Assembly: GCA_019359155.1 (NCBI GenBank)
Contig: JAHHHV010000073.1
Coordinates: 89,982 to 121,981 of the forward strand
Length of the DNA: 32,000 nucleotides
Origin: Pegethrix bostrychoides GSE-TBD4-15B
Lineage (GTDB): Bacteria; Cyanobacteriota; Cyanobacteriia; Elainellales; Elainellaceae
Reading direction: 5' to 3'
Each line of letters opens with the position of its first letter. Position 1 is the first letter of the stretch. Below are positions 2,989 to 32,000 of the stretch, one piece after another. The notes under the pieces were generated by a model that saw only the letters and a program-made list of their open reading frames with translations, made no database searches and was not told the DNA's origin. The position numbers were made by a program, and so were the translations under genes.

Positions 2989-3133
2989 AAAGACCTGAGT
3001 AGCTCAGTTAAGGCAGCTACATCTTGTGATTGGGCTTTACGAATATATGTACTCATCACATCTCGCTTCAATTCGCTCTTTGTGCGATCGTCTCACCAAA
3101 AGCTTCTAAGCACTACTCCACCGATACCCAGCA
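2989..3133 (-). pseudogene. truncated duplicate of the GNAT cassette 5' end (leader + first ~23 codons)
   Basis: 145 bp nearly identical (3 mismatches seen) to 3632-3776. Reads MSTYIRKAQSQDVAALTELLRSL, then diverges to a stop. Starts directly after the attC-like core at 3134-3140. Confidence 0.75.
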
Positions 3134-3220
3134 AGCTCACGTTTCGCTTGAGCGGCTACAAATAACTCAAAACTCAGCACTAAAATCTTGCGACATTCCG
3201 CTCCAAGCAAATTGTTAGCC
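3134..3220 (-). repeat. attC-like imperfect palindrome downstream of GNAT
   Basis: Minus strand: GGCTAAC (3220-3214) lies 11 nt after the GNAT stop. The arm TTGCTTGGAGCGG pairs with CCGCTCAAGCGAA with one extra G. The distal core is GTGAGCT (degenerate GTTRRRY). Confidence 0.55.
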
Positions 3221-3231
3221 TGCGCTGTGGG

Positions 3232-3699
3232 TTACTCTAGCACATAAACAAAATTGGCTATCTCTTCACGTTCTTTCCATCCTTGCCTTTCATAAAATTT
3301 GTGCTTGTATGAATCTCTACTACGACTATTAACTAACATCAATCGTGAGCATCCACGTTCTTGTGCTTCTGCTTTTACAACTTCTAAGAGTTGTGTTCCA
3401 ATACCTTGCCCACGAGCAGATTCACAAACAAATAGTTCAGAAATGTAACCTTCTGGTGCAGGCAAAAAGAGATAAGGGAGCCAGTGCACTGCAACGTAAC
3501 CTACAATCCTGCTGTCTTCCTCAGCTACATAAATGGTGTGGCTTTCATCTGCACTGCATAACGTGAGGTGGTGAATAATGCGCTCACGGGTCATCTCGCT
3601 CGATTCTGATGCCATGTAAGCGAACCAACCCAAAGACCTGAGTAGCTCAGTTAAGGCAGCTACATCTTGTGATTGGGCTTTACGAATATATGTACTCAT
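3232..3699 (-). CDS. GNAT family N-acetyltransferase
   Basis: ORF 3232-3714; the likely ATG is at 3699 (MSTYIRKA). Acetyl-CoA binding motif CESARGQGIGTQLLEVVKAEAQERGCSRLML. Confidence 0.9.
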   Translation of the reverse strand: MSTYIRKAQSQDVAALTELLRSLGWFAYMASESSEMTRERIIHHLTLCSADESHTIYVAEEDSRIVGYVAVHWLPYLFLPAPEGYISELFVCESARGQGIGTQLLEVVKAEAQERGCSRLMLVNSRSRDSYKHKFYERQGWKEREEIANFVYVLE

Positions 3700-3776
3700 C
3701 GCATCTCGCTTCAATTCGCTCTTTGTGCAATCGTCTCACCAAAAGCTTCTAAGCACCACTCCACCGATACCCAGCA
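3632..3776 (-). repeat. direct repeat (GNAT 5' end plus leader), partner of 2989-3133
   Basis: Sequence identity read directly. Both copies end at an attC-like core (GCCTAAC at 3777-3783; AGCTCAC at 3134-3140). Confidence 0.85.
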
Positions 3777-3820
3777 GCCTAACGGCTCAAATCAGCGGCG
3801 GCAATAACCTTGACTACTCC
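3777..3820 (-). repeat. partial attC-like site (distal half only)
   Basis: The minus strand reads ...GGTTATTGCCGCCGCTGATTTGAGCCGTTAGGC, homologous to the distal arm of the 6483-6566 site. No matching proximal arm was found in the glyoxalase 3' end. Confidence 0.4.
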
Positions 3821-6482: not shown

Positions 6483-6566
6483 GCATAACGGCTCAAATCA
6501 GCGGCGACAGTTAACCTTGAACTCAGCGCCAATGGCTATCAATCGTCCGCTGCATTTGAATTATGG
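6483..6566 (-). repeat. attC-like imperfect palindrome between the TMEM175-like and GST genes
   Basis: Plus strand: GCATAAC GGCTCAAATCAGCGGCGAC ... GTCCGCTGCATTTGAA TTATGG. The arms pair with single unpaired bases. An orphan proximal half-site (AGCTAAC core, 6669-6663; arm 6641-6657) lies nearer the upstream stop. Confidence 0.55.
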
Positions 6567-8375: not shown

Positions 8376-8721
8376 AAGAAGCCTCTACTTAAGGAAAACG
8401 TACTGAAAATCTATCAAAAGTTAGATGTTATTCACAACGCCTTTCTATTCACCAGTTTAAAGACTGAGTATTAAGGCAAGCTTCTTCACAGATACCAAAA
8501 CGGCTAACTATTAATAGACTGAAAGTTTCCGCCTAAGATCCCGCAGTAGCTGGATAGGCAGAACGAGTCGGCATAACATCCCAAATTCAACACTTCGGTA
8601 GAAGCTTTCCGTATAATACGCTCCTAGAGGCAGATAGCCCGATTCTTTCCGTATATCTTCAGATTCCATACAAAGGTGAGCAAATGTACTATTGAATACA
8701 CAGTACCTCTGCTCATCCCTC

Positions 8722-9039
8722 ATGCCGCTACTGCCCAAAAAGTTACTAGATCAAGTGCGCGATGCCATTCGCCTCAAGCACTACGCCTACCGCACTGAAG
8801 AAACCTACGTTCAGTGGATTCGCCGTTACATCCTGTTCCATGACAAACGCCATCCTATTGAGATGGGCAAAGCGGAAATCGAAGCCTTCCTCACTCATCT
8901 AGCCGTAGCAGGACAAGTGGCAGCTTCTACTCAAAATCAGGCTCTCAGTGCTTTGCTGTTTCTCTACCGCGAGCCCAATCTCACCAAACGTAAAAATTCT
9001 CCCCTCCCCACTTGTGCAAAGCCCAGTTTCAGCTTATGA
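8722..9039 (+). pseudogene. intI: integron-integrase-type tyrosine recombinase, N-terminal fragment only
   Basis: [77 protein letters not shown] aligns with the N-terminal SAM-like domain of IntI proteins. Similarity stops at about nt 8975 and no catalytic domain follows in any frame. Confidence 0.75.
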
Positions 9040-9076
9040 TTTTCCAACTGATTGCGTGAAGCAGTCAGGACAGGTA

Positions 9077-9233
9077 AAAGCTTAAGGCGTCGCTGACTAG
9101 AAGTGCTTGGAACCACGACTAGCCAGCTAACCCGGCCTCCCGCTCGTCACGGAAGGCAAGGCTGAGTCGATTTTACATCGCGCTCGCTTCGTTTTACACG
9201 CATGTGGTTAGGTGACTCTGCGTCTTAAGCTTT
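9077..9233 (+). promoter_or_regulatory. conserved structured leader upstream of the 66-aa ORF (copy A)
   Basis: Closing stem AAAGCTTAAGGCG (9077-9089) / CGTCTTAAGCTTT (9221-9233). Conserved hairpin GCTGACTAG...CTAGCCAGC (9092-9127). The same architecture, with compensatory changes, occurs at 31140-31293 on the minus strand. Confidence 0.55.
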
Positions 9234-9266
9234 CAAACCCATAACCCAAAATACGAGGAAAATATC

Positions 9267-9467
9267 ATGTCTACAGAGTTCAACGAACGTCTGAGCGATT
9301 CGCTTGGCCATCAGGCGCAGATTTGGATCGTCGGAACCCGCGAACAAGTCAACCACATCATCAGCGAAATGTACGTCAAGCAGATGATTACTGATCGAGG
9401 GCAATTCTCGCTGTTGGTTCCTGCACCCTTTGCTCAGGGCAAATTCATGAGCGTCTTGCTGCGATAG
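9267..9467 (+). CDS. small conserved hypothetical protein (66 aa), repeated family copy A
   Basis: GAGGA lies 7 nt before the ATG. The second copy (30909-31109, minus) differs at 6 nt, of which 5 are synonymous and 1 is F->Y, which indicates purifying selection on the protein. Confidence 0.8.
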   Translation: MSTEFNERLSDSLGHQAQIWIVGTREQVNHIISEMYVKQMITDRGQFSLLVPAPFAQGKFMSVLLR

Positions 9468-9863
9468 CCGAGCCGATTCTCCCGACCCAAAATTGGTGCA
9501 GCCTGATATGGCGAGTTGACAGGCTAAGCGAGGAGAGAGCAGAAGCCGAAATGGGCAGCTGCGAATCATCACCCTAGCCTTCGCCTACCGGGCTGCGCCG
9601 AAAAGACTGTTCCAACGTTTTGGCAAAATGTTTTGGCAAAATCATCCACCTGCTCCAGGCCAGCTCGCCATAGAATTCCTTACAATTCTTTACCCAGACT
9701 TGATACATTAGTACCAGAGAGATTTTGCGGTCTGCCGCATGGCTCTCATACCGGGGATCAACCTACCTGTAGCGTAAGTCAGCGCAGCTTTTGCCAGATC
9801 CCTGTAGATATAGCGGCGATGATCCGCTATTCTAAATCTCAGCCGTTTGGTTTGGGAATCGCC

Positions 9864-12800
9864 ATGTCGTTTGTTGGTCTGCATATTCACAGTGACTATA
9901 GCCTGCTAGACGGAGCCAGCCAGCTCCCCCAGCTAATCGATCGCGCTCTAGAGCTGGAGATGCCCGCGATTGCGCTGACAGATCATGGCGTGATGTATGG
10001 GGCAATTGAGCTGCTGAAAGTCTGTAAGGCCAAAGGCATCAAGCCGATCATTGGCAATGAGATGTATGTGATGAACAGCGACATCAGCAAGCAGGAGCGT
10101 CGTCCCAAATACCATCAGATTGTGCTGGCCAAAAACACCCAGGGCTACAAAAATCTGGTCAAGCTTACCACCATTTCGCATTTGCAGGGCGTGCAGGGCA
10201 AGGGGATTTTTTCGCGCCCCTGCATCAACAAAGCGCTGATTGAGCAGTATCACCAGGATTTGATTGTCACCAGCGGCTGTTTGGCAGGCGAAGTGCCCCA
10301 GGCGATTATGCAGGGCAAGCCGGAAATTGCCCGACAGGTGGCGCGCTGGTATCAAGATCTGTTTGGCGAAGATTACTACCTGGAGCTGCAAGACCACGGC
10401 TCCCAGGAAGACCGCATCGTTAACGTGGAGCTAGTGAAAATCGCCCGCGAGCTGGGCCTTGAGCTAATCTGCACCAACGACTCGCACTATATTTCCTGCT
10501 ACGACGTGGAGGCACATGACGCGCTGCTCTGCATCCAGACCGGTAAGCTGATCACCGAAGACAAGCGGCTGCGCTACAGCGGCACTGAATACCTGAAGTC
10601 AGCAGAAGAAATGAGCTGGCTGTTTCGCGATCACCTGGACGACGCAGTGATTGCCGAAGCGATTGCCAATACGCTAAAGGTCGCCGCCAAGATTGGGGAG
10701 TACAAAATTCTGGGCGAGCCGCGCATCCCCAACTACCCCGTGCCAGCAGGTCATTCGCTCTCAGACTACCTAGAAGAGATGACGCGGCAGGGGCTGATGG
10801 AGCGGTTCAACTGCCAGAGCTTTGATCAAATCACGCCAGAATATCAGGAGCGGCTGGACTACGAGCTGCAAATGATGCACCAAATGGGCTTTGACGCCTA
10901 TTTTCTGGTGGTCTGGGACTACATCAAATTTGCCCGCGACCAGGGGATTCCAGTGGGGCCAGGGCGCGGTTCAGCAGCAGGTTCTTTGGTCGCCTACGCG
11001 CTGCGGATTACCAACATTGACCCGGTGCATCACGGACTGCTGTTTGAGCGGTTCCTTAACCCAGAGCGCAAGTCGATGCCGGATATTGACACCGATTTTT
11101 GCATCGACCGCCGCGAGGAGGTGATTGAATATGTCACCGAAAAGTACGGCACTGAGCGCGTGGCGCAGATTATAACTTACAACCGGATGGCCTCCAAAGC
11201 CGTGCTTAAAGACGTGGCGCGGGTGCTGGATATTCCCTATTCCGAGTCCGACAAAATGGCGAAGCTGATCCCGGTGGTGCGGGGCAAGCCGACGAAGTTA
11301 GCGATGATGATTTCTGAAGATACGCCTGCGCCAGAATTCCGCGACAAATACCTCAACGACCCGAAAGTGCGGCACTGGCTGGATATGGCGCTGCGGATTG
11401 AGGGCACTAACAAAAGCGTCGGCATTCATGCGGCGGGCGTGGTGATTTCTTCTGATCCGCTAGACGAAATTGTGCCGCTTCAGCGCAACGCAGACGGCTC
11501 GGTATTCACCCAATATTACATGGAGGATATCGAGGCGCTGGGTCTGCTGAAAATGGACTTTTTGGGCTTAAAAAACCTGACAATGATCCAAAAGGCAGTC
11601 GAGCTCATCAAGCAGACTCAGCAGGTTGATCTCGATCTCGATGAGCTGCCGATGGATGATCTCAAGTCCTATCAGCTTTTAAGTCGGGGCGATTTGGAAG
11701 GCATCTTTCAGCTAGAGTCTTCCGGGATGCGGCAGATTGTCAAAGACTTGCGCCCTTCTGGACTCGAAGATATTTCGTCGGTGCTGGCACTGTATCGACC
11801 AGGGCCGCTAGATGCCGGGTTAATTCCCAAGTTTATCAACCGCAAACATGGACGTGAACAGATCTCTTATGAAGATAAGCTGCTGGAGCCTATCCTAAAC
11901 GAAACGTACGGCATCATGGTCTATCAAGAGCAGATTATGAAAATTGCTCAGGATATGGCCGGATATTCTTTGGGGCAGGCCGACTTACTGCGTCGCGCGA
12001 TGGGCAAGAAGAAGAAGTCGGAAATGGAGAAGCACCAGGAGCTATTTGTGAAGGGCGCTTCTGAGAACAATGTCCCGAAGAAAGTCGCAGAAGATCTATT
12101 TGAGCAAATGGTGATGTTTGCTGAATATTGCTTTAACAAATCGCACTCCACCGCCTACGGATACATTACCTATCAAACCGCTTACCTCAAGGCCAACTAT
12201 CCGGTCGAGTACATGGCGGCGCTGCTGACCTCCAACAGCGGTGACCAAGACAAGGTGCAAAAATATATTGCCACCTGTATGAACATGGGGATTACGGTCG
12301 AGCCGCCCAGCATCAACCGCTCCGGCATCGACTTCACGCCGCTATCTGAGAGCATTCTGTTTGGCCTTTCAGCTGTGCGGAACGTCGGCGGTGGCGCAAT
12401 TGAGAACCTGCTGGCGGCTCGCGCAGATGGCCCCTTCGTCTCGCTGCCCGACCTCTGCGACCGGGTCGATCCGCGCACCGTCAATAAACGCGCCCTAGAA
12501 GCCCTGATCCAATCTGGGGCGCTGGACGAACTCGAACCCAACCGCAACCAGCTGATGCACGACCTCGAACCCGTGCTGGACTGGGCGCAGTCTCGCGCCA
12601 GAGACAAAATCAGCGGTCAGGGCAATCTGTTTGATTTGATGGGCAGCAGCGAAACCAGCATGAGCGCTTTTGACTTGGCACCCAAAGCGCCTGCTGTGCC
12701 CGACTATCCGCCCCAAGAAAAGCTGAAGCTAGAAAAAGATCTGCTCGGCTTTTACATCTCCGATCACCCGCTCAAAACCGTACAGAATGCGGCGCGCATG

Positions 12801-13352
12801 CTAGCCCCAATCAACCTCAGCGAGCTGAGCGAGAAGCCAGATAATATTACCCTGAGCGCGATTGCGATGATTAGCAGCATCAAGCCCATCGTTACCAAGA
12901 AGGGCGACCGCATGGCTGTGGTGCAGATCGAAGACCTGACTGGGCATGCCGAAGCCGTGATCTTCCCCAAATCCTTCGAGCGTATTCAGCAATATATTCA
13001 GGTCGATACTCGCCTGATGCTCTGGGGCAAAGTAGACAGGCGGGATGACCGCAGCCAGTTTGTGATTGAAGATGCGGAGCCAATTGAAGACGTGCGGATG
13101 GTGATGGTAGAGCTCGACAGCCTCACCGCCAGCGACATCCGGCAGCAGCACGGACTCCGCACCATTTTGCTGGAGCATCGCGGCGAAGATGAGAGCGGCA
13201 AGATTCCAGTGATTGCGGTGATCTCCAGCCTGGAGCGGCGGGAAATTGTGCGGCTGGGGGCGCAGTTCCGGGTGCAGAACCACGAAATGACGGTTGGCGC
13301 TCTGCTGAAGGCGGGATTTCAGGCGCGGGTCGAGACACTGCTGGCTGGCTGA
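9864..13352 (+). CDS. dnaE: DNA polymerase III alpha subunit (contiguous, intein-less)
   Basis: PHP domain start [19 protein letters not shown] (ATG 9864; the track's upstream extension is not homologous). Also [21 protein letters not shown] and [16 protein letters not shown]. 1162 aa. Confidence 0.95.
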
Positions 13353-15046: not shown

Positions 15047-17308
15047 TTACTCCACGCCCCCTACCGTCAGCATCCGCGCCTCAATCCCCGCCCACAGCTC
15101 TGGCGACAGCCGCACCGCCGCCTCTTTGCAGCGCACCATTAGCTCGTTGGCGTAGAGGTAGTCTGCGAGTAGCTGAGATTCTTCCTCGGAGAACTCAACG
15201 ATTGCTGGATCAAGTTGAAGCGTGTCAAACCAAAGTTTCTGAATTTGCTCAACGAAGGCGCGTCGGACTTTAGGAGGCTGATTGTCATCTGGTGGTGTAA
15301 GAGCTTCAAGCTTGAAAATTACCTGCGTGAAATCAATCGAGTGAAAAATTTTCGCTTGCTCACAAAAGCGAGCACGGTCGAGGTCGCGGTCGCGGTCGAG
15401 GTCGCGAGCGCGGTTGAGGGCACGGTCGAAGGCGAGGTCGCGGTCGAGGGCACGGGCGAGGTCGAGGACGCGGTCGAGAACGCGGTCGAGGTCGAGGGCG
15501 AGGTCGAGGGCGAGGTCGCGGGCGCGGGCGTAGTCGAGGACGAGGTCGAGGTTGCGGGCACGGGCGAGGTCGCGGGCGCGGGCGAGGGCGTAGTCGAGGG
15601 CGAGGTAAACCGCCACCGATCGCTTGGCCGCAGGTTTATAATCTCCTTCTGACCCATTGGTTGCCTGCTCTACCCATTTCAACAAAGGAATAATCCGTTG
15701 AGCTGCTAAAGGATTTTGGAGCAGCGTTCGCACCTGCTTTTCCATCAGCACCAGTAGCTCATCAGCGCCTTTCCGTCCCGGCATTAGTCCGGTGACCAGC
15801 AAAAATACTTCTTTCCAGCGTTGATCTGTCAAATGATTCGTAACCAACTCTTCGATCTGCTGGTTATCAACAATATATTGCGCGGTTAGATATTCTTGAA
15901 ACGTCAGATGCGAAAACGAATAGGCATCTCTGGCACGTTCAACCAAAATTCCCTGCTGAACTTCAATTGCTTCCAAAATCTTTTCGCTGTCGAGATGCTT
16001 GGGCGCATTTAGGTTATTGACCAAAAATTCTCGAATCTTATCGGCGATGCTGCGTTTGTTGAAGAAAAGCTCGTCCTCAACAAAGCTATCAAAGGCAATA
16101 TCAGCCAGTAGTTCGTGCTCTAGCTCAAGGCTCAACTCTTGATAAATCGGGTTGTGCTGAATCCGCTTTTCAGATGCCCATTTTCGCAGCAGCACATCCA
16201 GTGCCTCGCCATACAGCGTCGAGCGATTCTTGGGAAAATCCATCGACTCGTCATAAACCGCACAGAGCAGTGTCAGCAGCAGCGGCGTTTGGGCTAGCTC
16301 TTTGGCCGCAGCATATTCAGGCCGCTTCAACAGCTCCCAGCACTGATCAGCCGTTTGCGTCTCCTCATCTTTGGGTGCACGAAACCAGTTGCGAATAAAC
16401 TGCTCAATCTGCTCATCCTCAAATGCCGCCATCGCCACATCTTTGAAGCGCGGAAACCCGCCCTTGTAGGCCGCAACCCGACAAGAGGCAATAAACCGAT
16501 TTCGGCTGTAGCGATCCACCAAATCCTGAATCTGCGTAATCGCATGATCCAAATGCTCCAGCGGCACTTCATCCAAACCATCCAGCAAAATCAGCAGCTT
16601 GCCTTTTTCCAACGCCGCCAGCGCAAACTCTTCAGATTCCGGGAAGCCGCAAATCTCAAACTCTCTGGCAATCAGCGACTCAACCTTAATCTCCTGCGAA
16701 TTAAACCGCTGTAACGCCAAAAACACCGGAATGCAGGCATGGTCAAACGTGCCCTGCTTCCCCTTCAGTGCCTCCAGCCCCACCTTCCGCAAAAAAGTCG
16801 ATTTGCCAACTCCCGGCCCGCCCAGTACCATCAAATACTGCGTTTGATTGGCGACCATCAGCCCTGACTGCTTGCCATCTTGCCCTCGCCCAAGTCTGCG
16901 CTGCTCCCCCTGCCGGAACAAACTTTGCAGCGACTCAGCCGATTCAAAATAGCGCAGCTCCGAGCGATCCAAAACCTGCACCGCCGTATACAGATCCTCC
17001 AGCCGCATCGGATTATCCATCCGCACACAGGCCACCTTCAGCTCGCCGTGCCGCTTCTCGTAGTTGAGCACATATTGCCGAATTGCCTCTTTCAGCTTTG
17101 GCTTAAGAATATCGTGGTCGAGCTGTTCAGCCAGTTTGCTGCCTTTCGTTTTGACGATTTCTGTTACCAGCGCTGTCAATGCAGAAGTCCCGATCGCGAT
17201 TAGGGGTTCAAAGCCGGTCATAGTTAGAAGCAGCAGGGGGAATATCCCCAGAATAAGTGCGACTTGCCGGATCAGCAACCCAAGCAGTCGGCTCAGTTTC
17301 AGGATCAA
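15047..17308 (-). CDS. NACHT-domain STAND NTPase with C-terminal A/L/D/R repeat tract
   Basis: Walker A LGGPGVGKSTFL and Walker B LLILLDGLDEV, followed by a helical and winged-helix-like region. The start is ambiguous: ATG 17308 gives a hydrophobic N-terminus but overlaps the upstream ORF by 100 nt, and ATG 17221 (MTGFEP) is the alternative. Confidence 0.85.
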   Translation of the reverse strand: MILKLSRLLGLLIRQVALILGIFPLLLLTMTGFEPLIAIGTSALTALVTEIVKTKGSKLAEQLDHDILKPKLKEAIRQYVLNYEKRHGELKVACVRMDNPMRLEDLYTAVQVLDRSELRYFESAESLQSLFRQGEQRRLGRGQDGKQSGLMVANQTQYLMVLGGPGVGKSTFLRKVGLEALKGKQGTFDHACIPVFLALQRFNSQEIKVESLIAREFEICGFPESEEFALAALEKGKLLILLDGLDEVPLEHLDHAITQIQDLVDRYSRNRFIASCRVAAYKGGFPRFKDVAMAAFEDEQIEQFIRNWFRAPKDEETQTADQCWELLKRPEYAAAKELAQTPLLLTLLCAVYDESMDFPKNRSTLYGEALDVLLRKWASEKRIQHNPIYQELSLELEHELLADIAFDSFVEDELFFNKRSIADKIREFLVNNLNAPKHLDSEKILEAIEVQQGILVERARDAYSFSHLTFQEYLTAQYIVDNQQIEELVTNHLTDQRWKEVFLLVTGLMPGRKGADELLVLMEKQVRTLLQNPLAAQRIIPLLKWVEQATNGSEGDYKPAAKRSVAVYLALDYALARARDLARARNLDLVLDYARARDLALDLALDLDRVLDRVLDLARALDRDLAFDRALNRARDLDRDRDLDRARFCEQAKIFHSIDFTQVIFKLEALTPPDDNQPPKVRRAFVEQIQKLWFDTLQLDPAIVEFSEEESQLLADYLYANELMVRCKEAAVRLSPELWAGIEARMLTVGGVE
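15372..15606 (-). repeat. low-complexity coding repeat (GAGGTCGCGG-type) inside the NACHT gene
   Basis: Encodes ALDYALARARDLARARNLDLVLDYARARDLALDLALDLDRVLDRVLDLARALDRDLAFDRALNRARDLDRDRDLDRAR. The tract is open in several frames on both strands, which explains track ORFs 15215-15652 and 15319-15657. Confidence 0.85.
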
Positions 17309-20530: not shown

Positions 20531-21169
20531 ATGATAGAGGCAGGTTTAACTCCCAGTCTGGTCGTTCCAGATCAGGTTCCAATTCCCAGCTCGACGCCGA
20601 TCAAGCTGGGGCTTCTGGCTTCTGGCAGCGGTAGCAACGTTGAGGTAATCGCCAAAGCGATCCAGGCAGGCCAGCTCAACGCCCAAATCCAGGTGGTGAT
20701 CTACAATAACCCAACTGCCAAGGTGGCTGAACGCGCCGAGCGGCTAGGACTGGCCAAAGTGCTGCTGAACCACCGCGAGTTTGCCAGCCGAGAAGCGCTG
20801 GATCAGGCGATTGTCAAGACGCTCGCAACCCATCAGGCTGACTGGGTGATCATGGCAGGCTGGATGCGGATTGTCACCCAGGAGCTCATTGACGCTTTTC
20901 CGCGCCGGATTTTGAACATTCACCCTAGCTTATTACCCAGCTTTCCGGGAGCCAATGCCGTTGAGCAAGCCTTGCAGTCTGGCGTGAAAATTACGGGCTG
21001 TACGGTGCATTATGTGGAGCTAGCCGTAGACAGCGGCCCAATTATTATTCAGGCGGCAGTGCCGGTGCTGCCCGACGACACGCCCGCAACTCTGCATCAG
21101 CGAATTCAGGTGCAGGAACACCGCATTTTTCCGCTGGCGATTGCTTTGGCTGCCCAACGGCTTAGCTGA
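20531..21169 (+). CDS. purN: phosphoribosylglycinamide formyltransferase
   Basis: LLASGSGSN, MAGWMRIV and NIHPSLLPSFPG motifs at the expected size. The start codon is uncertain. Confidence 0.9.
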   Translation: MIEAGLTPSLVVPDQVPIPSSTPIKLGLLASGSGSNVEVIAKAIQAGQLNAQIQVVIYNNPTAKVAERAERLGLAKVLLNHREFASREALDQAIVKTLATHQADWVIMAGWMRIVTQELIDAFPRRILNIHPSLLPSFPGANAVEQALQSGVKITGCTVHYVELAVDSGPIIIQAAVPVLPDDTPATLHQRIQVQEHRIFPLAIALAAQRLS

Positions 21170-21240
21170 GCGGCGGCAGATTAACTTAGCATCTCAGTAA
21201 GGGGATTTGACCCGTCCGCTCCAGCGTGTTGTTGTTATGC
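21152..21240 (-). repeat. attC-like imperfect palindrome overlapping the purN stop codon
   Basis: Plus strand: GCCCAAC GGCTTAGCTGAGCGGCGG ... CCGTCCGCTCCAGC GTGTTGTT GTTATGC. It belongs to the same sequence family as 4805-4880, with extra bases again on the plus-strand 3' arm. Confidence 0.5.
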
Positions 21241-27004: not shown

Positions 27005-27211
27005 ATGACTTTTAGTGATGTGGTCGAGAGTATAAAAAGTCTTTCCACAGATGAAAAACGTGAGATTCAACTGTTGGTGCAACAATATCTTCGCGAGGAG
27101 CGGCGTGACGAAATATATGCCAACTTCAAGTCAGCGCAAGTCGAACAGCAAAAAGGTGAACTGAAATTTTCCTCCAATATCAAGAGGCTGAGACAATTGA
27201 TGGAGGAGTGA
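27005..27211 (+). CDS. putative antitoxin (addiction-module component-like)
   Basis: 68 aa. Its stop lies 3 nt before the RelE/ParE-like toxin start. SLSTDEKREIQLLVQQYL resembles small helical antitoxins. Confidence 0.6.
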   Translation: MTFSDVVESIKSLSTDEKREIQLLVQQYLREERRDEIYANFKSAQVEQQKGELKFSSNIKRLRQLMEE

Positions 27212-27214
27212 TTT

Positions 27215-27481
27215 GTGGAAGTCAGTTTCAGTTCTCCATTCAAACGTGCTTTCAAAAAGCGTATTAAAGGCAACACAGAGCTAGAGGTAAGATTTGGGCA
27301 AAAATTGGAACAGTTCACTGTAGATCCATTTGATCCGAGCTTGAAGACACACAAACTATCGGGCAAGCTCAAGGATTTTTGGAGTTTTAGCGTAGATTAC
27401 GATGAGAGGGTGCTGTTCTACTTTCTGGAAGCTGAGAAAGCTGTGTTTGTGGATATCGACAGTCATGACGAGGTGTATTGA
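27215..27481 (+). CDS. RelE/ParE-superfamily type II toxin
   Basis: 88 aa, GTG start. FKRAFKKR...DPFDPSLKTHKLSGKLKDFWSFSVDYDERVLF...DIDSHDEVY matches the RelE/YafQ-type pattern. Confidence 0.8.
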   Translation: MEVSFSSPFKRAFKKRIKGNTELEVRFGQKLEQFTVDPFDPSLKTHKLSGKLKDFWSFSVDYDERVLFYFLEAEKAVFVDIDSHDEVY

Positions 27482-27562
27482 GCAACAGTTGCAGCAGCAC
27501 AGCCACAGCTTATGAAGTGGATGGTCGATAGATCTTGTTGAAGAATCGATAGTTACAGTACG

Positions 27563-27585
27563 AAACGCTCTAATGCGACTCCTGA
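27563..27585. repeat. 23-nt repeat AAACGCTCTAATGCGACTCCTGA (copy 1)
   Basis: An identical 23-mer occurs at 28554-28576. Each copy lies 72-82 nt downstream of a TA operon stop codon. Confidence 0.8.
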
Positions 27586-27646
27586 TCAGATAGCGATGAC
27601 GCACAATCGATTGGCCTGAAAAAGAAATCTGATCGCAAACGCCCTG

Positions 27647-27831
27647 CTCGGCAGAGAGTGGCTGTTGCTGCGGAATAATTTAGCAGCAGAGAAGATCGCC
27701 AGCGCTCAGTCAATGGATGTCATGGTCTATGACTGGCTGGGGTTGGCGATCGTTCAGTCTCTGCGAACTGCGGTCGATGATTGAGTGAATTGAGCGATTG
27801 CGCTATCGCAGCAGGACGCTCATGAATTTGC
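27647..27831 (-). repeat. 3' flank plus last 8 codons of a deleted small-ORF copy (copy D remnant)
   Basis: About 185 bp highly similar to 30762-30937. It ends with ...KFMSVLLR-stop on the minus strand and then breaks off next to the higB promoter region. Confidence 0.8.
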
Positions 27832-27869
27832 GATGTGTGATAGCATGGGAGCCGTGATATTATGTCTTT

Positions 27870-28166
27870 ATGATTCGGTCATTTAAGAATTCTGGAACAG
27901 AAGATATCTTTAATGGTAAGTCATCTCAGTCAGCCCGAAAAATTTGTCCAGCTTCTTTGTGGAAGCGGGCAGGTCGAAAGCTCGATTTACTTGATTCCGT
28001 GATTACGTTGGATGAGCTACGAGTTCCATCTGGAAATCGATTGGAAGGATTGCAAGGTGATCGCAAAGGACAGTTCAGTATACGAATCAACGACCAGTAT
28101 CGAATCTGTTTCGCCTGGACGGATGTAGGCCCGGATGAAGTTGAAATTGTGGACTATCACGGATAG
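27870..28166 (+). CDS. higB: HigB-type (RelE-like) toxin
   Basis: 98 aa. MIRSFKNSGTEDIFNG...LRVPSGNRLEGLQGDRKGQFSIRINDQYRICFAW...VEIVDYH is the classic plasmid-maintenance killer protein pattern. Confidence 0.9.
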   Translation: MIRSFKNSGTEDIFNGKSSQSARKICPASLWKRAGRKLDLLDSVITLDELRVPSGNRLEGLQGDRKGQFSIRINDQYRICFAWTDVGPDEVEIVDYHG

Positions 28167-28182
28167 CAACCAGGAAGACCCT

Positions 28183-28482
28183 ATGAGAGTGCCCACCCAT
28201 CGACCCCCCACCCATCCAGGGGAAATGCTGCTAGAGGAATTTTTGGTTCCAATGGGATTAACTCAACGTGAACTGGCTGATGCTATTCATGTTCCATATC
28301 AGCGAGTGAATGAACTCGTTAAGGGAAAACGGGGCATGACACCGAGTACTGCATTGAGATTAGCTAAGTTTTTTGAGGTTTCTGCTGATTTTTGGATGAC
28401 GCTGCAATTGCGGTGGGATCTGTATCATGCTCAACAGGACGAGGCGCAGGATCTGGCAAAGATTCGGCCTCATGCGGTATGA
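28183..28482 (+). CDS. higA: HigA-type antitoxin (XRE HTH)
   Basis: HPGEMLLEEFLVPMGLTQRELADAIHVPYQRVNELVKGKRGMTPSTALRLAKFF. I use ATG 28183 rather than the track start 28135, which overlaps higB. Confidence 0.9.
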   Translation: MRVPTHRPPTHPGEMLLEEFLVPMGLTQRELADAIHVPYQRVNELVKGKRGMTPSTALRLAKFFEVSADFWMTLQLRWDLYHAQQDEAQDLAKIRPHAV

Positions 28483-28553
28483 CATGCTGGTGTTAAGGTG
28501 ATTGCTGCACCGTGGTAGTGGGCAAATCGTAATTGATCCTTGGGCAATCTGCT

Positions 28554-28576
28554 AAACGCTCTAATGCGACTCCTGA
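28554..28576. repeat. 23-nt repeat AAACGCTCTAATGCGACTCCTGA (copy 2)
   Basis: Identical to 27563-27585. Confidence 0.8.
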
Positions 28577-28625
28577 AGCGTTGCAGCAGGTTTATCAAGC
28601 GATGTTGGCAGAGTTGGCTCTGTAT

Positions 28626-28800
28626 GCAGCAGGACGCTCATGTATTTGCCGGGGGTAAAGGGGACGGGTAGCAGGGGAGAGAATTGGCTACGGTCGGTGG
28701 TGATTTGCTTGACGTACATCTCGCTGATGGTGTGGTTGACCTGTTCTCTGGTGCCGACGATCCAGATTTGGGTTCTGTGGTCGTGCAGGTTTTGAAGCTT
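28626..28800 (-). pseudogene. decayed copy of the 66-aa small ORF (copy C)
   Basis: The minus strand reads ...QIWIVGTREQVNHTISEMYVKQITTDRSQFSPLLPVPFTPGKYMSVLLH. There is no start codon in frame (a TGA lies upstream) and the stop is lost. About 70 percent nt identity to copy B. Confidence 0.7.
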
Positions 28801-28862
28801 TTTATCCGCTCCATAGAGCCATATTCATGTAATATTCGTAAAGGATTCGGCGAGAAAAACTG

Positions 28863-29822
28863 ATGGCTCAAGTAACATGCTTAGAAATCTGTGCTGGCGC
28901 TGGTGGTCAAGCCTTAGGGCTAGAGCAGGTAGGCTTTGAGCCTCAAGCACTTGTAGAGATTGATGGAGCTTGTTGTAACACTCTTAGATTTAATAGACCC
29001 CAGTGGAATGTCATAGAAGGCGATCTGAGAGACTTTGAGTGTAAACCATTTGAAGGAATTGATTTGTTGGCTGGAGGTGTACCTTGTCCTCCATTTTCAA
29101 AAGCAGGAAAGCAGTTGGGGAAAGAAGATGAGCGCGACCTTTTCCCTGAAGCTTTGCGTTTAGTAGATGAATGCAGACCTCGTGCTGTCATGTTAGAAAA
29201 CGTGCGAGGATTTTTAGATGCTGTTTTCGAAGATTATCGAGGTAATCTCAAACGACAGCTTGAAAAGATGGGATATGTAGCTGATTGGAGATTATTAAAT
29301 GCTTCTGATTTTGGGGTGTCACAACTTAGACCTCGCGTTGTTATCATAGCGATGCGCAAAGATTTATCAGAAAATTTCTTATGGCCAAAGTCTTATGGGC
29401 AAAATCCAGCAACTGTTGGGACACTTTTATATGATCAAATGGCATCACGAGGATGGAGAGGTGCTAAGAAATGGAAACGACAAGCTGATGATATTGCACC
29501 CACAATTGTTGGGGGGTCTAAAAAACATGGCGGCCCCGATTTAGGTCCTACTCGTGCTAAGCGAGCCTGGGCAAACTTGGGGGTAGATGGAATGGGCATA
29601 GCTAATGAGCCACCTGATCAAGACTTCTTGGGAATGCCCAAACTAACGGTTGAAATGGTTGCTAGGATACAAGGCTTTCCCGATGATTGGCATTTCACAG
29701 GCAAGAAAACCCCTGCATACCGTCAAGTGGGTAATGCATTTCCTCCACCCGTTGCTCAAGCTGTGGCAAGAGAGATTTATAACTGCTTGACTCACAGGAA
29801 AATATTTACAGTTGCCAGTTAA
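28863..29822 (+). CDS. DNA (cytosine-5) methyltransferase
   Basis: Motif I LEICAGAGGQALG, motif IV GGVPCPPFSKAGK, motif VI LENVRGF, motif VIII QLRPRVVIIA and motif X QVGNAFPPPVA. Confidence 0.9.
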   Translation: MAQVTCLEICAGAGGQALGLEQVGFEPQALVEIDGACCNTLRFNRPQWNVIEGDLRDFECKPFEGIDLLAGGVPCPPFSKAGKQLGKEDERDLFPEALRLVDECRPRAVMLENVRGFLDAVFEDYRGNLKRQLEKMGYVADWRLLNASDFGVSQLRPRVVIIAMRKDLSENFLWPKSYGQNPATVGTLLYDQMASRGWRGAKKWKRQADDIAPTIVGGSKKHGGPDLGPTRAKRAWANLGVDGMGIANEPPDQDFLGMPKLTVEMVARIQGFPDDWHFTGKKTPAYRQVGNAFPPPVAQAVAREIYNCLTHRKIFTVAS

Positions 29823-29833
29823 GTGGTTATCTC

Positions 29834-30430
29834 ATGTCAGAAAAGAGAGGCGCAAGAGCGAAACTCAGAGAACACTTTCTAAATAACATCGGAAGGGTTA
29901 TGGATTCTGATGAGCTTAGAGAAGTGGCGGGAGGTATTACGGAATGGGCAAGACGAGTAAGGGAGCTGCGATCAGAAGAAGGATATCAAATTCAAACCCA
30001 CAATGATAGGGGCGATTTAAAGCCTGGTCAATACATCCTCGAAGATCCTAAGCCAATTCCCGCTTTTGAAAGAGCAATATCTAAGGAAACACGGGCATAT
30101 GTTCTCGATAGGAATGGATTTACTTGTCAGATGTGTGGTGCTGTAGCTGGAGAGCCGCATCCCTATGACCTTACGAGAAAAACTCGATTGCATATTGGGC
30201 ACATAGTAGATAAATCTCAAGGAGGCACTGACGACCCATCAAATCTTCGTGCAATTTGCTCTGTGTGCAACGAAGGAGCCTCAAATTTAACTCTGGAAAG
30301 ACCATCAAACTTGAAACTTTTAGCACAGGTCAGACGGGCGAAAGGTAGTGATCAAGTTGAGCTTCTTAAGTGGCTTGTTCGGAAGTATCCAAAACAGACT
30401 GAGGAGTTTTTGGATGAGAACAATACCTAA
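29834..30430 (+). CDS. HNH-type endonuclease, probable cognate restriction enzyme
   Basis: 198 aa, starting 11 nt after the methyltransferase stop. HNH motif CQMCG...HIGHIVDKSQGGTDDPSNLRAICSVCN. Confidence 0.75.
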   Translation: MSEKRGARAKLREHFLNNIGRVMDSDELREVAGGITEWARRVRELRSEEGYQIQTHNDRGDLKPGQYILEDPKPIPAFERAISKETRAYVLDRNGFTCQMCGAVAGEPHPYDLTRKTRLHIGHIVDKSQGGTDDPSNLRAICSVCNEGASNLTLERPSNLKLLAQVRRAKGSDQVELLKWLVRKYPKQTEEFLDENNT

Positions 30431-30761: not shown

Positions 30762-30937
30762 CTCGGCAGAGAGTGGCTGTTGCTGCGGAATAATTTAGTA
30801 GCAGAGAAGATCGCCAGCGCTCAGTCAATGGATGTCATGGTCTATTGCTGACTGGGGTTGGCGATCCTTCAGTTTCTGCAAACTGCGGTTGGTGGTTGAG
30901 CGATTGGGCTATCGCAGCAGGACGCTCATGTATTTGC
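30762..30937 (-). repeat. conserved 3' flank of the small-ORF module (copy B), partner of 27647-27831
   Basis: Identity read directly. Overlaps the last codons of ORF 30909-31109. Confidence 0.8.
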
Positions 30938-31109
30938 CCTGAGCAAAGGGTGCAGGAACCAACAGCGAGAATTGCCCTCGATCAGTAATCATCTGCTTGA
31001 CGTACATCTCGCTGATGATGTGGTTGACTTGTTCGCGGGTTCCGACGATCCAGATCTGTGCCTGATGGCCAAGCGAATCGCTCAGACGTTCGTTGAACTC
31101 TGTGGACAT
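30909..31109 (-). CDS. small conserved hypothetical protein (66 aa), repeated family copy B
   Basis: Identical to copy A except F->Y. I use ATG 31109 (MSTEFNERL), not the track's upstream 31163. Confidence 0.8.
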   Translation of the reverse strand: MSTEFNERLSDSLGHQAQIWIVGTREQVNHIISEMYVKQMITDRGQFSLLVPAPFAQGKYMSVLLR

Positions 31110-31139
31110 GGGTTTTGCCTCATATTGGGTATGGTTAAA

Positions 31140-31293
31140 GGACTTGAGGCTGCGGTTTCCCAAACCACATTCATGAACAAGGTGTGCGATCGATTAAGAT
31201 GAGCACAGCCCAGCCCTCCGCGTATACGGACGCTTGGGTTAGCTGGCTAGTCGTGTCGCAAGCACGTCTAGTCAGCGACCTCGCCTCAAGCCC
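31140..31293 (-). promoter_or_regulatory. conserved structured leader (copy B)
   Basis: Minus strand: closing stem GGGCTTGAGGC / GCCTCAAGTCC. The conserved hairpin GCTGACTAG...CTAGCCAGC corresponds to plus-strand 31242-31276. Confidence 0.55.
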
Positions 31294-31439: not shown

Positions 31440-32000
31440 TCACTCTGGTTGTCTCAGTTTTGCTAGTTTCTGCGTTGCAAATTCTCGCACTTGTTCGTCA
31501 GGATCATGGTTGGCACGATCATTTACTAGCTCTAGCGTTTGAGGCTGGTCAGGATAGTTTCTGAGGAGCGCTTGTAGCGCAGTTTGACGAGGATTTTCTT
31601 CTCGATCTTGTTTACGCTCAAAGGGATCGTGTAGAGCACAATCGTACAGAAACTCAAACATTTCAGGTAAGTCTTTCCAGCCCCGAGCTAACTCTTGCAA
31701 TGCCGCACTACGCACAAAGAAATGATCATCACTTTGAGCACGGGTTTTGAGGATAGGTAAGGTCTCTGGGTCATCTTTCCAGCCCCGAGCTAACTCTTGC
31801 AATGCCGCACTACGCACAAAGAAATGATCATCACTTTGAGCGCGGGTTTTGAGGATAGGTAAGGTCTCTGGGTCGTCTTTCCAGCCCTGAGCTAACGCTT
31901 GCAATGCCGCATAACGCACACCTGAATTATCATCACTTTGAGCGCGGGTTTTGAGGATAGGTAAGGTCTCTGGGTCGTCTTTCCAGCCCTGAGCTAACGC
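31440..32000 (-). CDS. HEAT (PBS-lyase-like) repeat protein, C-terminal part; 5' end outside window
   Basis: The frame stays open to the window edge. 34-aa repeats WKDDPETLPILKTRAQSDDHFFVRSAALQELARG are encoded by near-identical 102-bp tandem units from 31672 onward. Confidence 0.8.
   Translation of the reverse strand, partial: ALAQGWKDDPETLPILKTRAQSDDNSGVRYAALQALAQGWKDDPETLPILKTRAQSDDHFFVRSAALQELARGWKDDPETLPILKTRAQSDDHFFVRSAALQELARGWKDLPEMFEFLYDCALHDPFERKQDREENPRQTALQALLRNYPDQPQTLELVNDRANHDPDEQVREFATQKLAKLRQPE

Follow-up and report, generated by a model that had tools for sequence, protein, structure and literature searches.

The glutamine-II riboswitch family of cyanobacteria (glnA RNA and Downstream-peptide motif, RF01739/RF01704) controls small open reading frames (ORFs) such as gifB. 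Integron attC sites are formed by R''/R' sites (RYYYAAC...GTTRRRY), span 57-141 nt, and are located 3' of a cassette ORF, in an array beside intI/attI, where they fold as bottom-strand DNA. A unit that invites comparison with both was found in a 32,000-nucleotide stretch of the Pegethrix bostrychoides GSE-TBD4-15B genome (contig JAHHHV010000073.1, positions 89,982 to 121,981 of the forward strand), hereafter the window. Two full copies, A and B, are present, each consisting of a structured leader of ~230 nt, with a core of ~165 nt, and an ORF of 66 amino acids (aa). With middling confidence, we interpret the leader as a new cis-regulatory RNA, riboswitch-like or autoregulated by its own product, that would act on termination or on the start of translation in a dispersed family of small-protein genes. 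Neither the leader RNA nor the 66-aa protein is in the curated libraries searched (Rfam; Pfam and others).

A scan of reference genomes yielded 170 copies in filamentous cyanobacteria (Elainellales, Leptolyngbyaceae, Coleofasciculaceae, Crinalium, Egbenema, Drouetiella and relatives), dispersed at ten to more than twenty per genome and often located at contig ends. Eighty of them were kept as loci (L-numbered), about 20 of these from Elainella saxicola alone. The unit is organized, 5' to 3', as an upstream block, a promoter-like element, a hairpin (P0), the structured core, a pyrimidine tract, a linker of ~20 nt, a Shine-Dalgarno (SD) sequence and the ORF. The conserved unit of copy A is longer than the initial annotation of the window had it, and begins at 8974. 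The features of the two copies, in window positions, are the following.

8974-9011, forward strand: upstream block of copy A (CCCAATCTCAC...), found at equal distance (37-38 nt before CTTGTG) in L041, L063, L060 and L067
9012-9040, forward strand: predicted promoter-like element of copy A, with -35-like TTGTGC (9012-9017), a 17-nt spacer and -10-like TATGAT (9035-9040)
9048-9068, forward strand: P0, 5' hairpin of copy A (CUGAUUGC / GCAGUCAG), beginning ~7 nt past the -10
9077-9266, forward strand: whole leader of copy A
9078-9240, forward strand: five-helix RNA core of copy A, matched by a covariance model built from homologues (93 bits, E 5e-28); the minimum free energy (MFE) fold gives the same helices
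9080-9089 / 9221-9230, forward strand: P1, the closing stem of copy A
9092-9127, forward strand: P2 of copy A
9128-9133, forward strand: J2/3 of copy A (UAACCC)
~9134-9158, forward strand: P3 of copy A
~9164-9186, forward strand: P4 of copy A
~9203-9219, forward strand: P5 region, degenerate in copy A
after P1, forward strand: tail of copy A, CUUUCAAACC, in which the pyrimidine tract is eroded
9255-9258, forward strand: SD of copy A (GAGG), 8 nt before the ATG
9267-9467, forward strand: 66-aa ORF of copy A, with codons 3-9 (9273-9293) under extra nucleotide-level constraint
31356-31328, reverse strand: predicted promoter-like element of copy B, with -35-like TTGCAT (31356-31351) and -10-like TATGCT (31333-31328)
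31321-31301, reverse strand: P0 hairpin of copy B
~31300-31110, reverse strand: leader of copy B
31132-31293, reverse strand: five-helix RNA core of copy B (120 bits in the same model; fold z-score -3.4)
30909-31109, reverse strand: 66-aa ORF of copy B, 97% identical to that of copy A

MFE folds of diverse single copies concur in a structure in which P1 closes around four hairpins. RNAalifold applied to a plain MAFFT alignment recovered just 18 pairs, and the covariance model was hence seeded by hand from the MFE helices (165 positions, 41 pairs) and used to search 506 kb of loci together with the window. The model scores 85-165 bits on the sense strand versus at most 33 bits on the antisense strand, and copies A and B are the only full matches in the window. 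Across the 506 kb, nearly every RNA match is positioned directly upstream of a copy of the ORF, the exceptions being L047 and L050, plus a partial extra match in L054. In L047 (3654-3845) and L050 (3663-3840), ~150 nt separate the RNA core from an intact ORF, as an insertion or duplication in the P5 region, while L054 carries an extra partial RNA copy (2607-2744) without an ORF, ~1.3 kb upstream of its own unit, whose ORF is intact. The leader of L072 (3852-3996) is replaced at its 5' end, with the ORF intact.

In the model alignment of 60 leaders, which is fitted to the model's own structure and made up of related sequences, 88.9% of the cells form standard pairs, 27 of the 41 pairs have changed on both sides, and 163 cells are compensatory. 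None of 500 column shuffles of these leaders matches the observed pairing and covariation values, and pairing falls to 20-50% when the partners are slid by 1-3 columns. All six pairs of P5 covary. Insertions are found at the tips of P2, P4 and P5, and G-U pairs are frequent; together with the strand-specific scores, this points to constraint on the RNA of the coding strand. Unpaired elements are conserved as well, namely CAGCUAACCU (J2/3), GAUUUUAA (P4 loop) and GCUAAUGCAAAAC. The leader thus presents what is expected of a riboswitch-type fold: a covarying, aptamer-like structure with conserved unpaired nucleotides, placed between a promoter-like element and an SD.

A scan of the whole window at gathering scores against Rfam 15, whose families include riboswitches, T-boxes, ribozymes, HEARO, retron msr and cyanobacterial sRNAs, returned no match. 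A permissive scan of 8950-9650 gave only chance snoRNA-like matches (E 3.3-7.9), and the same kind of scan with four better-preserved representatives gave none at E <= 1. A hammerhead-like CUGAUGA core was considered and discarded, as the motif varies among copies (CUAAUGC, CUGAAGC and others). The initial annotation had proposed a cis-regulatory RNA, or a small RNA linked to a small protein, unlike the classes known to it. That proposal is supported: its stems are backed by covariation in 58 additional leaders, no Rfam family is recognized even in the permissive scans, and the unit has no terminal repeats.

The two window copies show the architecture at close range. P1 is formed by GCTTAAGGCG (9080-9089) and CGTCTTAAGC (9221-9230) in copy A, and by GCTTGAGGC (31291-31283) and GCCTCAAG (31150-31142), on the reverse strand, in copy B, with an A-U pair of copy A swapped for G-C in copy B. 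The long hairpin and the TAACCC that follows it (9092-9133 in copy A) are near-identical in both copies; a search pattern for this 42-nt hairpin is expected to find 0 matches in shuffled sequence, which places the A/B match far above chance. The third hairpin occupies the same position in both leaders and differs in sequence. ORF A (9267-9467, forward) and ORF B (30909-31109, reverse) differ at 6 of 201 nt (97% identity), with synonymous changes in codons 2, 17, 19, 34 and 64 and one replacement, F60Y (TTC to TAC in codon 60). This exact recount agrees with the initial annotation, and all the leader elements that it had described, the closing stem with its swapped pair included, are present where it had placed them.

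The rates at which leader and ORF diverge were compared over 903 pairs of paralogues. Mean identity is 0.70 for the leader and 0.72 for the ORF at the nucleotide level, and the leader diverges less than the synonymous sites in 99.3% of the pairs, which implies that the leader itself is constrained. The A/B pair stands out: its ORFs are 97% identical, with a synonymous-site difference (pS) of 0.115, and its leaders 70%. These values, together with the near-identical P2 segment, indicate that A and B are gene-conversion mosaics. The earlier remark that the ORFs are nearly identical while the leaders are far more diverged holds for A and B, but it is peculiar to this pair and reflects gene conversion rather than a weaker constraint on the leader.

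Homologues of the 66-aa protein form 74 clusters, nearly all of 65-66 aa; every one with a named source is cyanobacterial, and there are many paralogues per genome. Purifying selection acts on the ORF throughout the family, as the initial annotation had deduced from the two window copies (median pairwise ratio of nonsynonymous to synonymous substitution, dN/dS, 0.16). An exhaustive profile search of 1.8 billion representatives retrieved no more than 52 clusters, which range from 35 to 124 aa; distant relatives were not among them, nor was any larger protein that contains the 66-aa domain. No match to Pfam, NCBIfam, PHROGs or PADLOC had an E value below 0.016. The AlphaFold2 model (predicted local distance difference test, pLDDT, 69) is a small beta-alpha-beta-beta unit for which Foldseek finds no significant neighbour in the PDB (best E 0.17); KH, S10 and dodecin-like folds appear only among the non-significant matches and were set aside. 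Profile and fold comparison, which the initial annotation had suggested for identifying the protein, thus matched no known family or fold. The protein is predicted to be soluble and near-neutral (maximum 19-residue Kyte-Doolittle value 0.59-1.31, grand average of hydropathy ~0, isoelectric point, pI, ~6.7). The family is absent from the viral contig, plasmid and phage collections, and full-text literature searches returned no description of the leader RNA or of the protein.

Homology between paralogues spans from about -300 nt, relative to the ATG, to the stop codon, where it ends abruptly; after the stop codon, each copy has a hairpin of its own, unrelated to the others. The promoter-like element (TTGnnn-N17/18-TAnnnT, usually TTGTGT...TATGCT) is seen at a constant position ahead of P1 in 56 of 58 copies, versus 5.7% of background windows. 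P0 occupies the same position in all copies examined, with a stem of the CUGG/CCAG type and a loop of variable length, and the predicted 5' end, ~7 nt past the -10, is where it begins. Immediately behind the 3' strand of P1, ~20 nt before the SD, comes a pyrimidine tract, CUUUUCUUCUC, that scarcely varies, and a GAGG/AAGG SD is located 7-10 nt before the ATG in all copies. In most copies, the SD is a possible pairing partner of the tract, and both sides have changed together in L003, L006, L007, L049 and L053.

The constraint continues past the start codon. Among 60 unique copies, the synonymous sites of codons 3-9 (ACA GAG TTC AAC GAA CTG CTG; 9273-9293 in copy A, 31103-31083 on the reverse strand in copy B) hardly change, whereas codons 17-66 are free to vary. 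It is thus probable that the functional RNA element reaches ~27 nt into the ORF. The codon 3-9 segment holds a small self-complementary hairpin, AGUUC-AAC-GAACU, and a search for a long-range pairing partner of this frozen start gave only loose and inconsistent duplexes. On the minus strand, a candidate antisense promoter, GCUAAUGC/GAUUUUAA, was rejected by inspection, its spacer varying from 16 to 20 nt and exceeding 30 nt in copies with P4 insertions; TTGAAC in codons 5-6 was rejected as an antisense -35, with no -10 at a workable distance. In L031 (3938-3953, reverse strand) and at equivalent positions elsewhere, the reverse complement of the P5 hairpin followed by UCGUUUUGCU fits a terminator-like pattern, and could end an antisense transcript from the ORF.

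Under the cis-regulatory interpretation, each copy would constitute a self-contained monocistronic gene with a conserved promoter, a ~230-nt leader, an SD, the 66-aa ORF and a copy-specific terminator. Most plausibly, the state of the leader fold would decide whether the 66-aa protein is made. With P1 closed, a terminator-like stem followed by a U-tract could arise, or the CU tract could be freed to occlude the purine-rich SD. The trigger could be a small ligand, as for a riboswitch, or the encoded protein, in an autoregulation of the ribosomal-protein-leader style. The data show conservation, covariation, strand specificity, a tight link of RNA and ORF, purifying selection and the additional constraint on the first 27 nt of the ORF, whereas the transcription start, the termination or SD occlusion, the trigger and the function of the protein are inferred. 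The family has spread to many scattered chromosomal sites, and the gene conversion that it undergoes gave rise to the mosaic A/B pair. That the leader is conserved ahead of each ORF copy throughout the family favours this interpretation. So do the covarying helices, P5 among them, the sense-strand bias of the model scores, the position of nearly all RNA matches next to an ORF copy, the promoter-like element with P0 at the predicted 5' end, the low divergence of the leader and the dN/dS of 0.16, the pairing that the tract can form with the SD in most copies, the frozen codons 3-9, and the copy-specific hairpins amid unrelated neighbours. The sole gene behind the leader encodes the orphan 66-aa protein, with no family or fold match.

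Several observations weigh against it. Cognate pairing of the tract and the SD (-6.42 kcal/mol) is not significantly better than that of permuted partners (-6.14 +/- 0.18 kcal/mol); pairing is weak in one subgroup, and the tract has been lost from both A and B. A strict sigma-70 scan and a terminator scan call neither the predicted promoter nor a termination site, and P1 encloses a 150-nt multiloop, which is atypical of an intrinsic terminator. Ten to more than 20 copies per genome before an orphan protein are unusual for a metabolite riboswitch, and the P1 sequence is itself unusually conserved, which fits protein recognition as well as ligand sensing. Three alternative pairings (J2/3 with the 5' strand of P5; an extension of P1; J1/2 with the segment after P4) are 75-88% pairable, mostly through conservation and with little covariation. 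A conformational switch through them is possible.

HIP1, a GCGATCGC repeat, is abundant in cyanobacteria, and its core, CGATCG, is enriched at both edges of the unit. On the upstream side, 60 nt are enough to include it in 13 of 28 copies (17% expected), with a preference for distances of 38 or 52-58 nt; on the downstream side, the 30 nt after the stop codon contain it in 8 of 28 copies (9.5% expected). HIP1-like palindromes at 38 or 52-58 nt before the -35-like box are seen in L041, L060, L063, L067 and others. Comparison of paralogues reveals no terminal inverted repeats or target duplications at the unit edges, so that the fixed ends of a miniature inverted-repeat transposable element (MITE), which the initial annotation had named as an observation that would speak against it, are lacking. 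No transposase recurs among 75 downstream and 53 upstream neighbours. These comprise 191 and 79 Pfam families, respectively, none of which recurs more than two or three times; the flanks are unrelated housekeeping genes, and no partner gene recurs on either side. The census of 170 copies and their flanks, a check that the initial annotation had called for, thus indicates that the association with toxin-antitoxin (TA), restriction-modification (R-M) and intI genes is local to this window. Its suggestion of a mobile module or recombination hotspot stands in part: the unit occurs in many scattered copies and has sharp ends, often marked by HIP1-like palindromes, but its neighbours elsewhere are housekeeping genes and not TA, R-M or integrase genes.

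Four copies or fragments of the unit are found inside the 32-kb window. The two partial copies and the repeated flank of copy B are located as follows.

27647-27788, reverse strand: repeat of the copy B 3' flank (142 nt, 92% identical), behind partial copy D
27802-27831, reverse strand: partial copy D, comprising only the final 30 nt of the ORF (97% identity to copy A)
28626-~28775, reverse strand: partial copy C, a pseudogene with ORF codons ~16-66 (78-81% identity) that lacks the leader and the start and no longer has its stop codon
30762-30903, reverse strand: terminator-like 3' flank of copy B, with an extended imperfect hairpin (GGAUCGCCA...UGGCGAUC) and then CUUCUCU (fold z-score -3.4)

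The flank of copy B is not common to copy A or to other family members. Its recurrence behind partial copy D argues for a segmental duplication of the ORF end plus flank, and not for transposition of the unit. Partial copy D adjoins higB/higA (27870-28482, forward), and partial copy C adjoins the start of a C5-methyltransferase/HNH pair (28863-30430, forward). These genes belong to an addiction/defence island (27005-30430, forward), on the strand opposite to the module remnants, in which each gene set is preceded by a fragment of the 66-aa ORF. The island comprises an antitoxin with a YafQ/RelE-like toxin (27005-27481), HigB/HigA (27870-28482), and a C5 cytosine methyltransferase with an HNH endonuclease (28863-30430).

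Upstream of copy A, a truncated integron-integrase-like gene (8692-8973, forward) retains only the N-terminal SAM-like domain, residues 18-94 of a ~315-337-aa protein, and no catalytic domain is present anywhere near it. The homology stops at residue 94, nucleotide 8973, and the upstream block of the unit begins at 8974, which bears out the earlier statement that copy A starts where the intI homology breaks off. A degenerate HIP1-like hexamer, CGCGAG, is found at 8968-8973, directly before the block, and this left edge may mark a boundary of recombination or gene conversion. A dnaE gene of full length (9633-13352) follows the inserted unit. Dispersed repeats elsewhere in the window include a 27-nt motif, GCCTAACGGCTCAAATCAGCGGCGGCA, that occurs three times with 81-100% identity (3777-3803, 6483-6509 and 21152-21178), and a 173-nt direct repeat (2989-3161 and 3632-3804; 92%) spaced by 643 nt. 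A tandem array with a 12/18-nt periodicity (15340-15627; 13 registers of a 108-nt unit) falls within a 753-aa ORF (15047-17308, reverse) and probably encodes a repetitive, low-complexity protein segment. Tandem repeats of 102 nt at 31671-31998 (90-97%) encode HEAT repeats in an ORF that ends at 31440 on the reverse strand and runs past the window.

Among the alternative explanations, an RNA-protein addiction or partner module, resembling type III TA or representing a new TA type, deserves consideration but appears doubtful. Here the ~200-nt leader would be released as a stable RNA, its 5' end protected by P0 and its 3' end formed by P1 and a U-tract, and would bind or neutralize a 66-aa protein made by read-through, so that the spread of the unit would reflect selfish maintenance. 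The order of promoter, structured RNA, stem with U-tract and small ORF mirrors type III loci such as ToxIN, and the many dispersed, diverging and partly decayed copies in a narrow taxonomic range resemble chromosomal TA families. P1 and the junction sequence are conserved as if recognized by a protein, RNA and ORF are practically always found together over the 506 kb (the lone partial RNA in L054 aside), and the window copies sit within a TA/R-M island. However, the leader RNA is free of tandem and direct repeats, the scan calls no terminator, the family-wide neighbours are housekeeping genes and not defence islands, and the protein is tiny, with no nuclease or other known fold and a negative PADLOC result. 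Membership in type III TA proper, with its ~170-aa endoribonuclease and tandem-repeat RNA, was rejected on the absence of repeats, the length of 66 aa, and the absence of PADLOC and Pfam matches. A locus of the type I kind, in which a toxin mRNA would be kept from translation by a structured 5' untranslated region (UTR) and repressed by an antisense RNA over the SD and ORF start, is in our view very unlikely. The long structured 5' UTR, the CU-rich tract near the SD, the dispersed multicopy loci of ~500 bp and the decayed copies would fit it; the frozen codons 3-9 are as expected from an overlapping antisense RNA target, and the reverse complement of P5 with UCGUUUUGCU reads as a terminator on the minus strand. 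Against this, the protein is not hydrophobic (maximum 19-residue Kyte-Doolittle value <=1.31, pI ~6.7) and has a predicted soluble fold, no conserved antisense promoter is seen on inspection, the candidate spacer being variable, and homology stops at the stop codon, so no downstream antisense gene is conserved. On hydropathy and predicted fold, membership in type I TA, with its small hydrophobic toxin, usually of less than 60 aa, was rejected.

An element that acts at the DNA level, be it a mobile cassette, a MITE or a recombination site such as attC, whose inverted repeats would be DNA structures or recombinase sites and whose ORF would be cargo, strikes us as highly improbable. It would account for the exact start of copy A at the break of the truncated integron-integrase-like gene, for the sharp unit ends with HIP1-core palindromes enriched at both edges, and for the four copies or fragments interleaved with TA and R-M genes in 32 kb. 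Yet no terminal inverted repeats, target duplications or transposase accompany the unit, viral, plasmid and phage collections contain no member of the family, and the many tolerated G-U pairs and the low scores of the reverse strand (<=33 versus 85-165 bits) place the constraint on the sense RNA. The structure is positioned 5' of the ORF, behind a promoter-like element, and not 3' of a cassette, and the copies are solitary among housekeeping genes rather than arrayed beside intI. The P1 core CTTAAG is unlike the attC R''/R' consensus (RYYYAAC/GTTRRRY). Assignment to attC was accordingly rejected on the P1 core (GCTTAAG/CTTAAGC), the length of ~150 nt, the 5' position, the favoured sense RNA and the solitary copies, the adjacent intI being an N-terminal fragment only. 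MITE or DNA transposon membership was rejected as well: there are no terminal inverted repeats, target-site duplications or recurrent transposase, and the sole edge feature is the enrichment of HIP1-like palindromes. Retron membership was also rejected, as the ORF behind the leader encodes 66 aa without a domain match, RVT_1 occurs in 1 of 53 upstream neighbours, and no reverse transcriptase is among the 25 most frequent downstream families listed (75 neighbours). These readings are not fully exclusive, since propagation by some recombinational route is evident from the HIP1-associated edges, the spread in many copies and the gene conversion. A self-maintaining RNA-protein cassette is a tentative, rather unlikely synthesis: the structured RNA and the 66-aa protein would form a ribonucleoprotein (an addiction, immunity or regulatory particle), and the cassette would multiply and homogenize by recombination at HIP1-like palindromes and seed sites where TA and R-M genes later accumulate. 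If true, it would be a TA-like or mobile system without a transposase, a nuclease or a known fold.

If the cis-regulatory interpretation is correct, the leader would represent a new, large and very well-supported structured RNA class (five helices, 27 covarying pairs, ~170 gene copies, 60 leaders aligned) that is absent from Rfam and tied to an orphan small-protein family absent from Pfam. It would provide an orphan riboswitch or autoregulatory candidate in cyanobacteria, with phylogenetic data rich enough for experiment design. The copy number, the sharp HIP1-associated boundaries and the gene-conversion mosaics make the unit a tractable case of a minimal promoter-leader-ORF unit spreading without a recognizable mobility gene. 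Recognition of the unit prevents spurious ORF calls across the leader, and explains assembly breaks, given the many copies at contig ends.

A comparison with described systems places the unit further. Like the glutamine-II riboswitches, it has a cyanobacterial structured 5' leader, here predicted to act in cis, that precedes small protein genes and can occur several times per genome. The leader here has no Rfam match and is much larger, with ~165 nt and five helices where they have a small pseudoknot or a fold of three stems; it is also present in far more copies, and the downstream protein is a single orphan family. With autoregulatory ribosomal-protein and phage mRNA leaders, such as those of S15, L20, S4 and T4 gp32, it shares a structure that reaches the SD and start of a small-protein gene, and its conserved stem and junction sequence and frozen ORF start fit a candidate protein-binding operator. 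In contrast to those leaders, there is no rRNA mimicry to point to, and the tens of paralogous leader-gene pairs per genome have no counterpart there.

Type I toxin mRNAs (hok/sok, aapA1/isoA1, tisB/istR-1) are comparable in their multicopy dispersed loci of ~0.5 kb, structured 5' UTR, CU-rich anti-SD-like sequence, decayed copies and narrow phylogenetic range, but the protein here is predicted to be soluble and is not a hydrophobic membrane peptide, and no gene for an antisense RNA was detected. Microcystis msoT1/msoA1 (PMC12390103), so far the sole type I candidate reported from cyanobacteria, is unrelated to this unit. Type III TA systems (ToxIN, CptIN, TenpIN) have the same order of promoter, non-coding RNA, stem with U-tract and protein gene, with RNA and protein inseparable; they differ in their tandem 34-36-nt repeats, in place of which the leader here has a single complex fold, and the 66-aa protein has no endoribonuclease fold and is negative in PADLOC. 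HEARO, the omega-RNA of IscB, is likewise, as are other element-associated RNAs with many copies in cyanobacteria, a large structured RNA directly upstream of an ORF, co-inherited with it and present in many dispersed copies per cyanobacterial genome, but the leader has no match to the Rfam HEARO family, the 66-aa ORF has no HNH, RuvC or transposase domain, and there are no transposon ends. Integron attC sites resemble the unit in the imperfect inverted repeat that closes a variable, branched interior, and copy A abuts a truncated intI-like gene with TA cassettes nearby; they differ in their core sites, their position relative to the ORF, which here follows the structure, the sense-RNA constraint with G-U pairs, and the solitary, dispersed copies. 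Judged by these comparisons, the unit appears to be a structured mRNA leader joined to a small gene, set apart from the known riboswitch and TA families by its copy number and orphan status.

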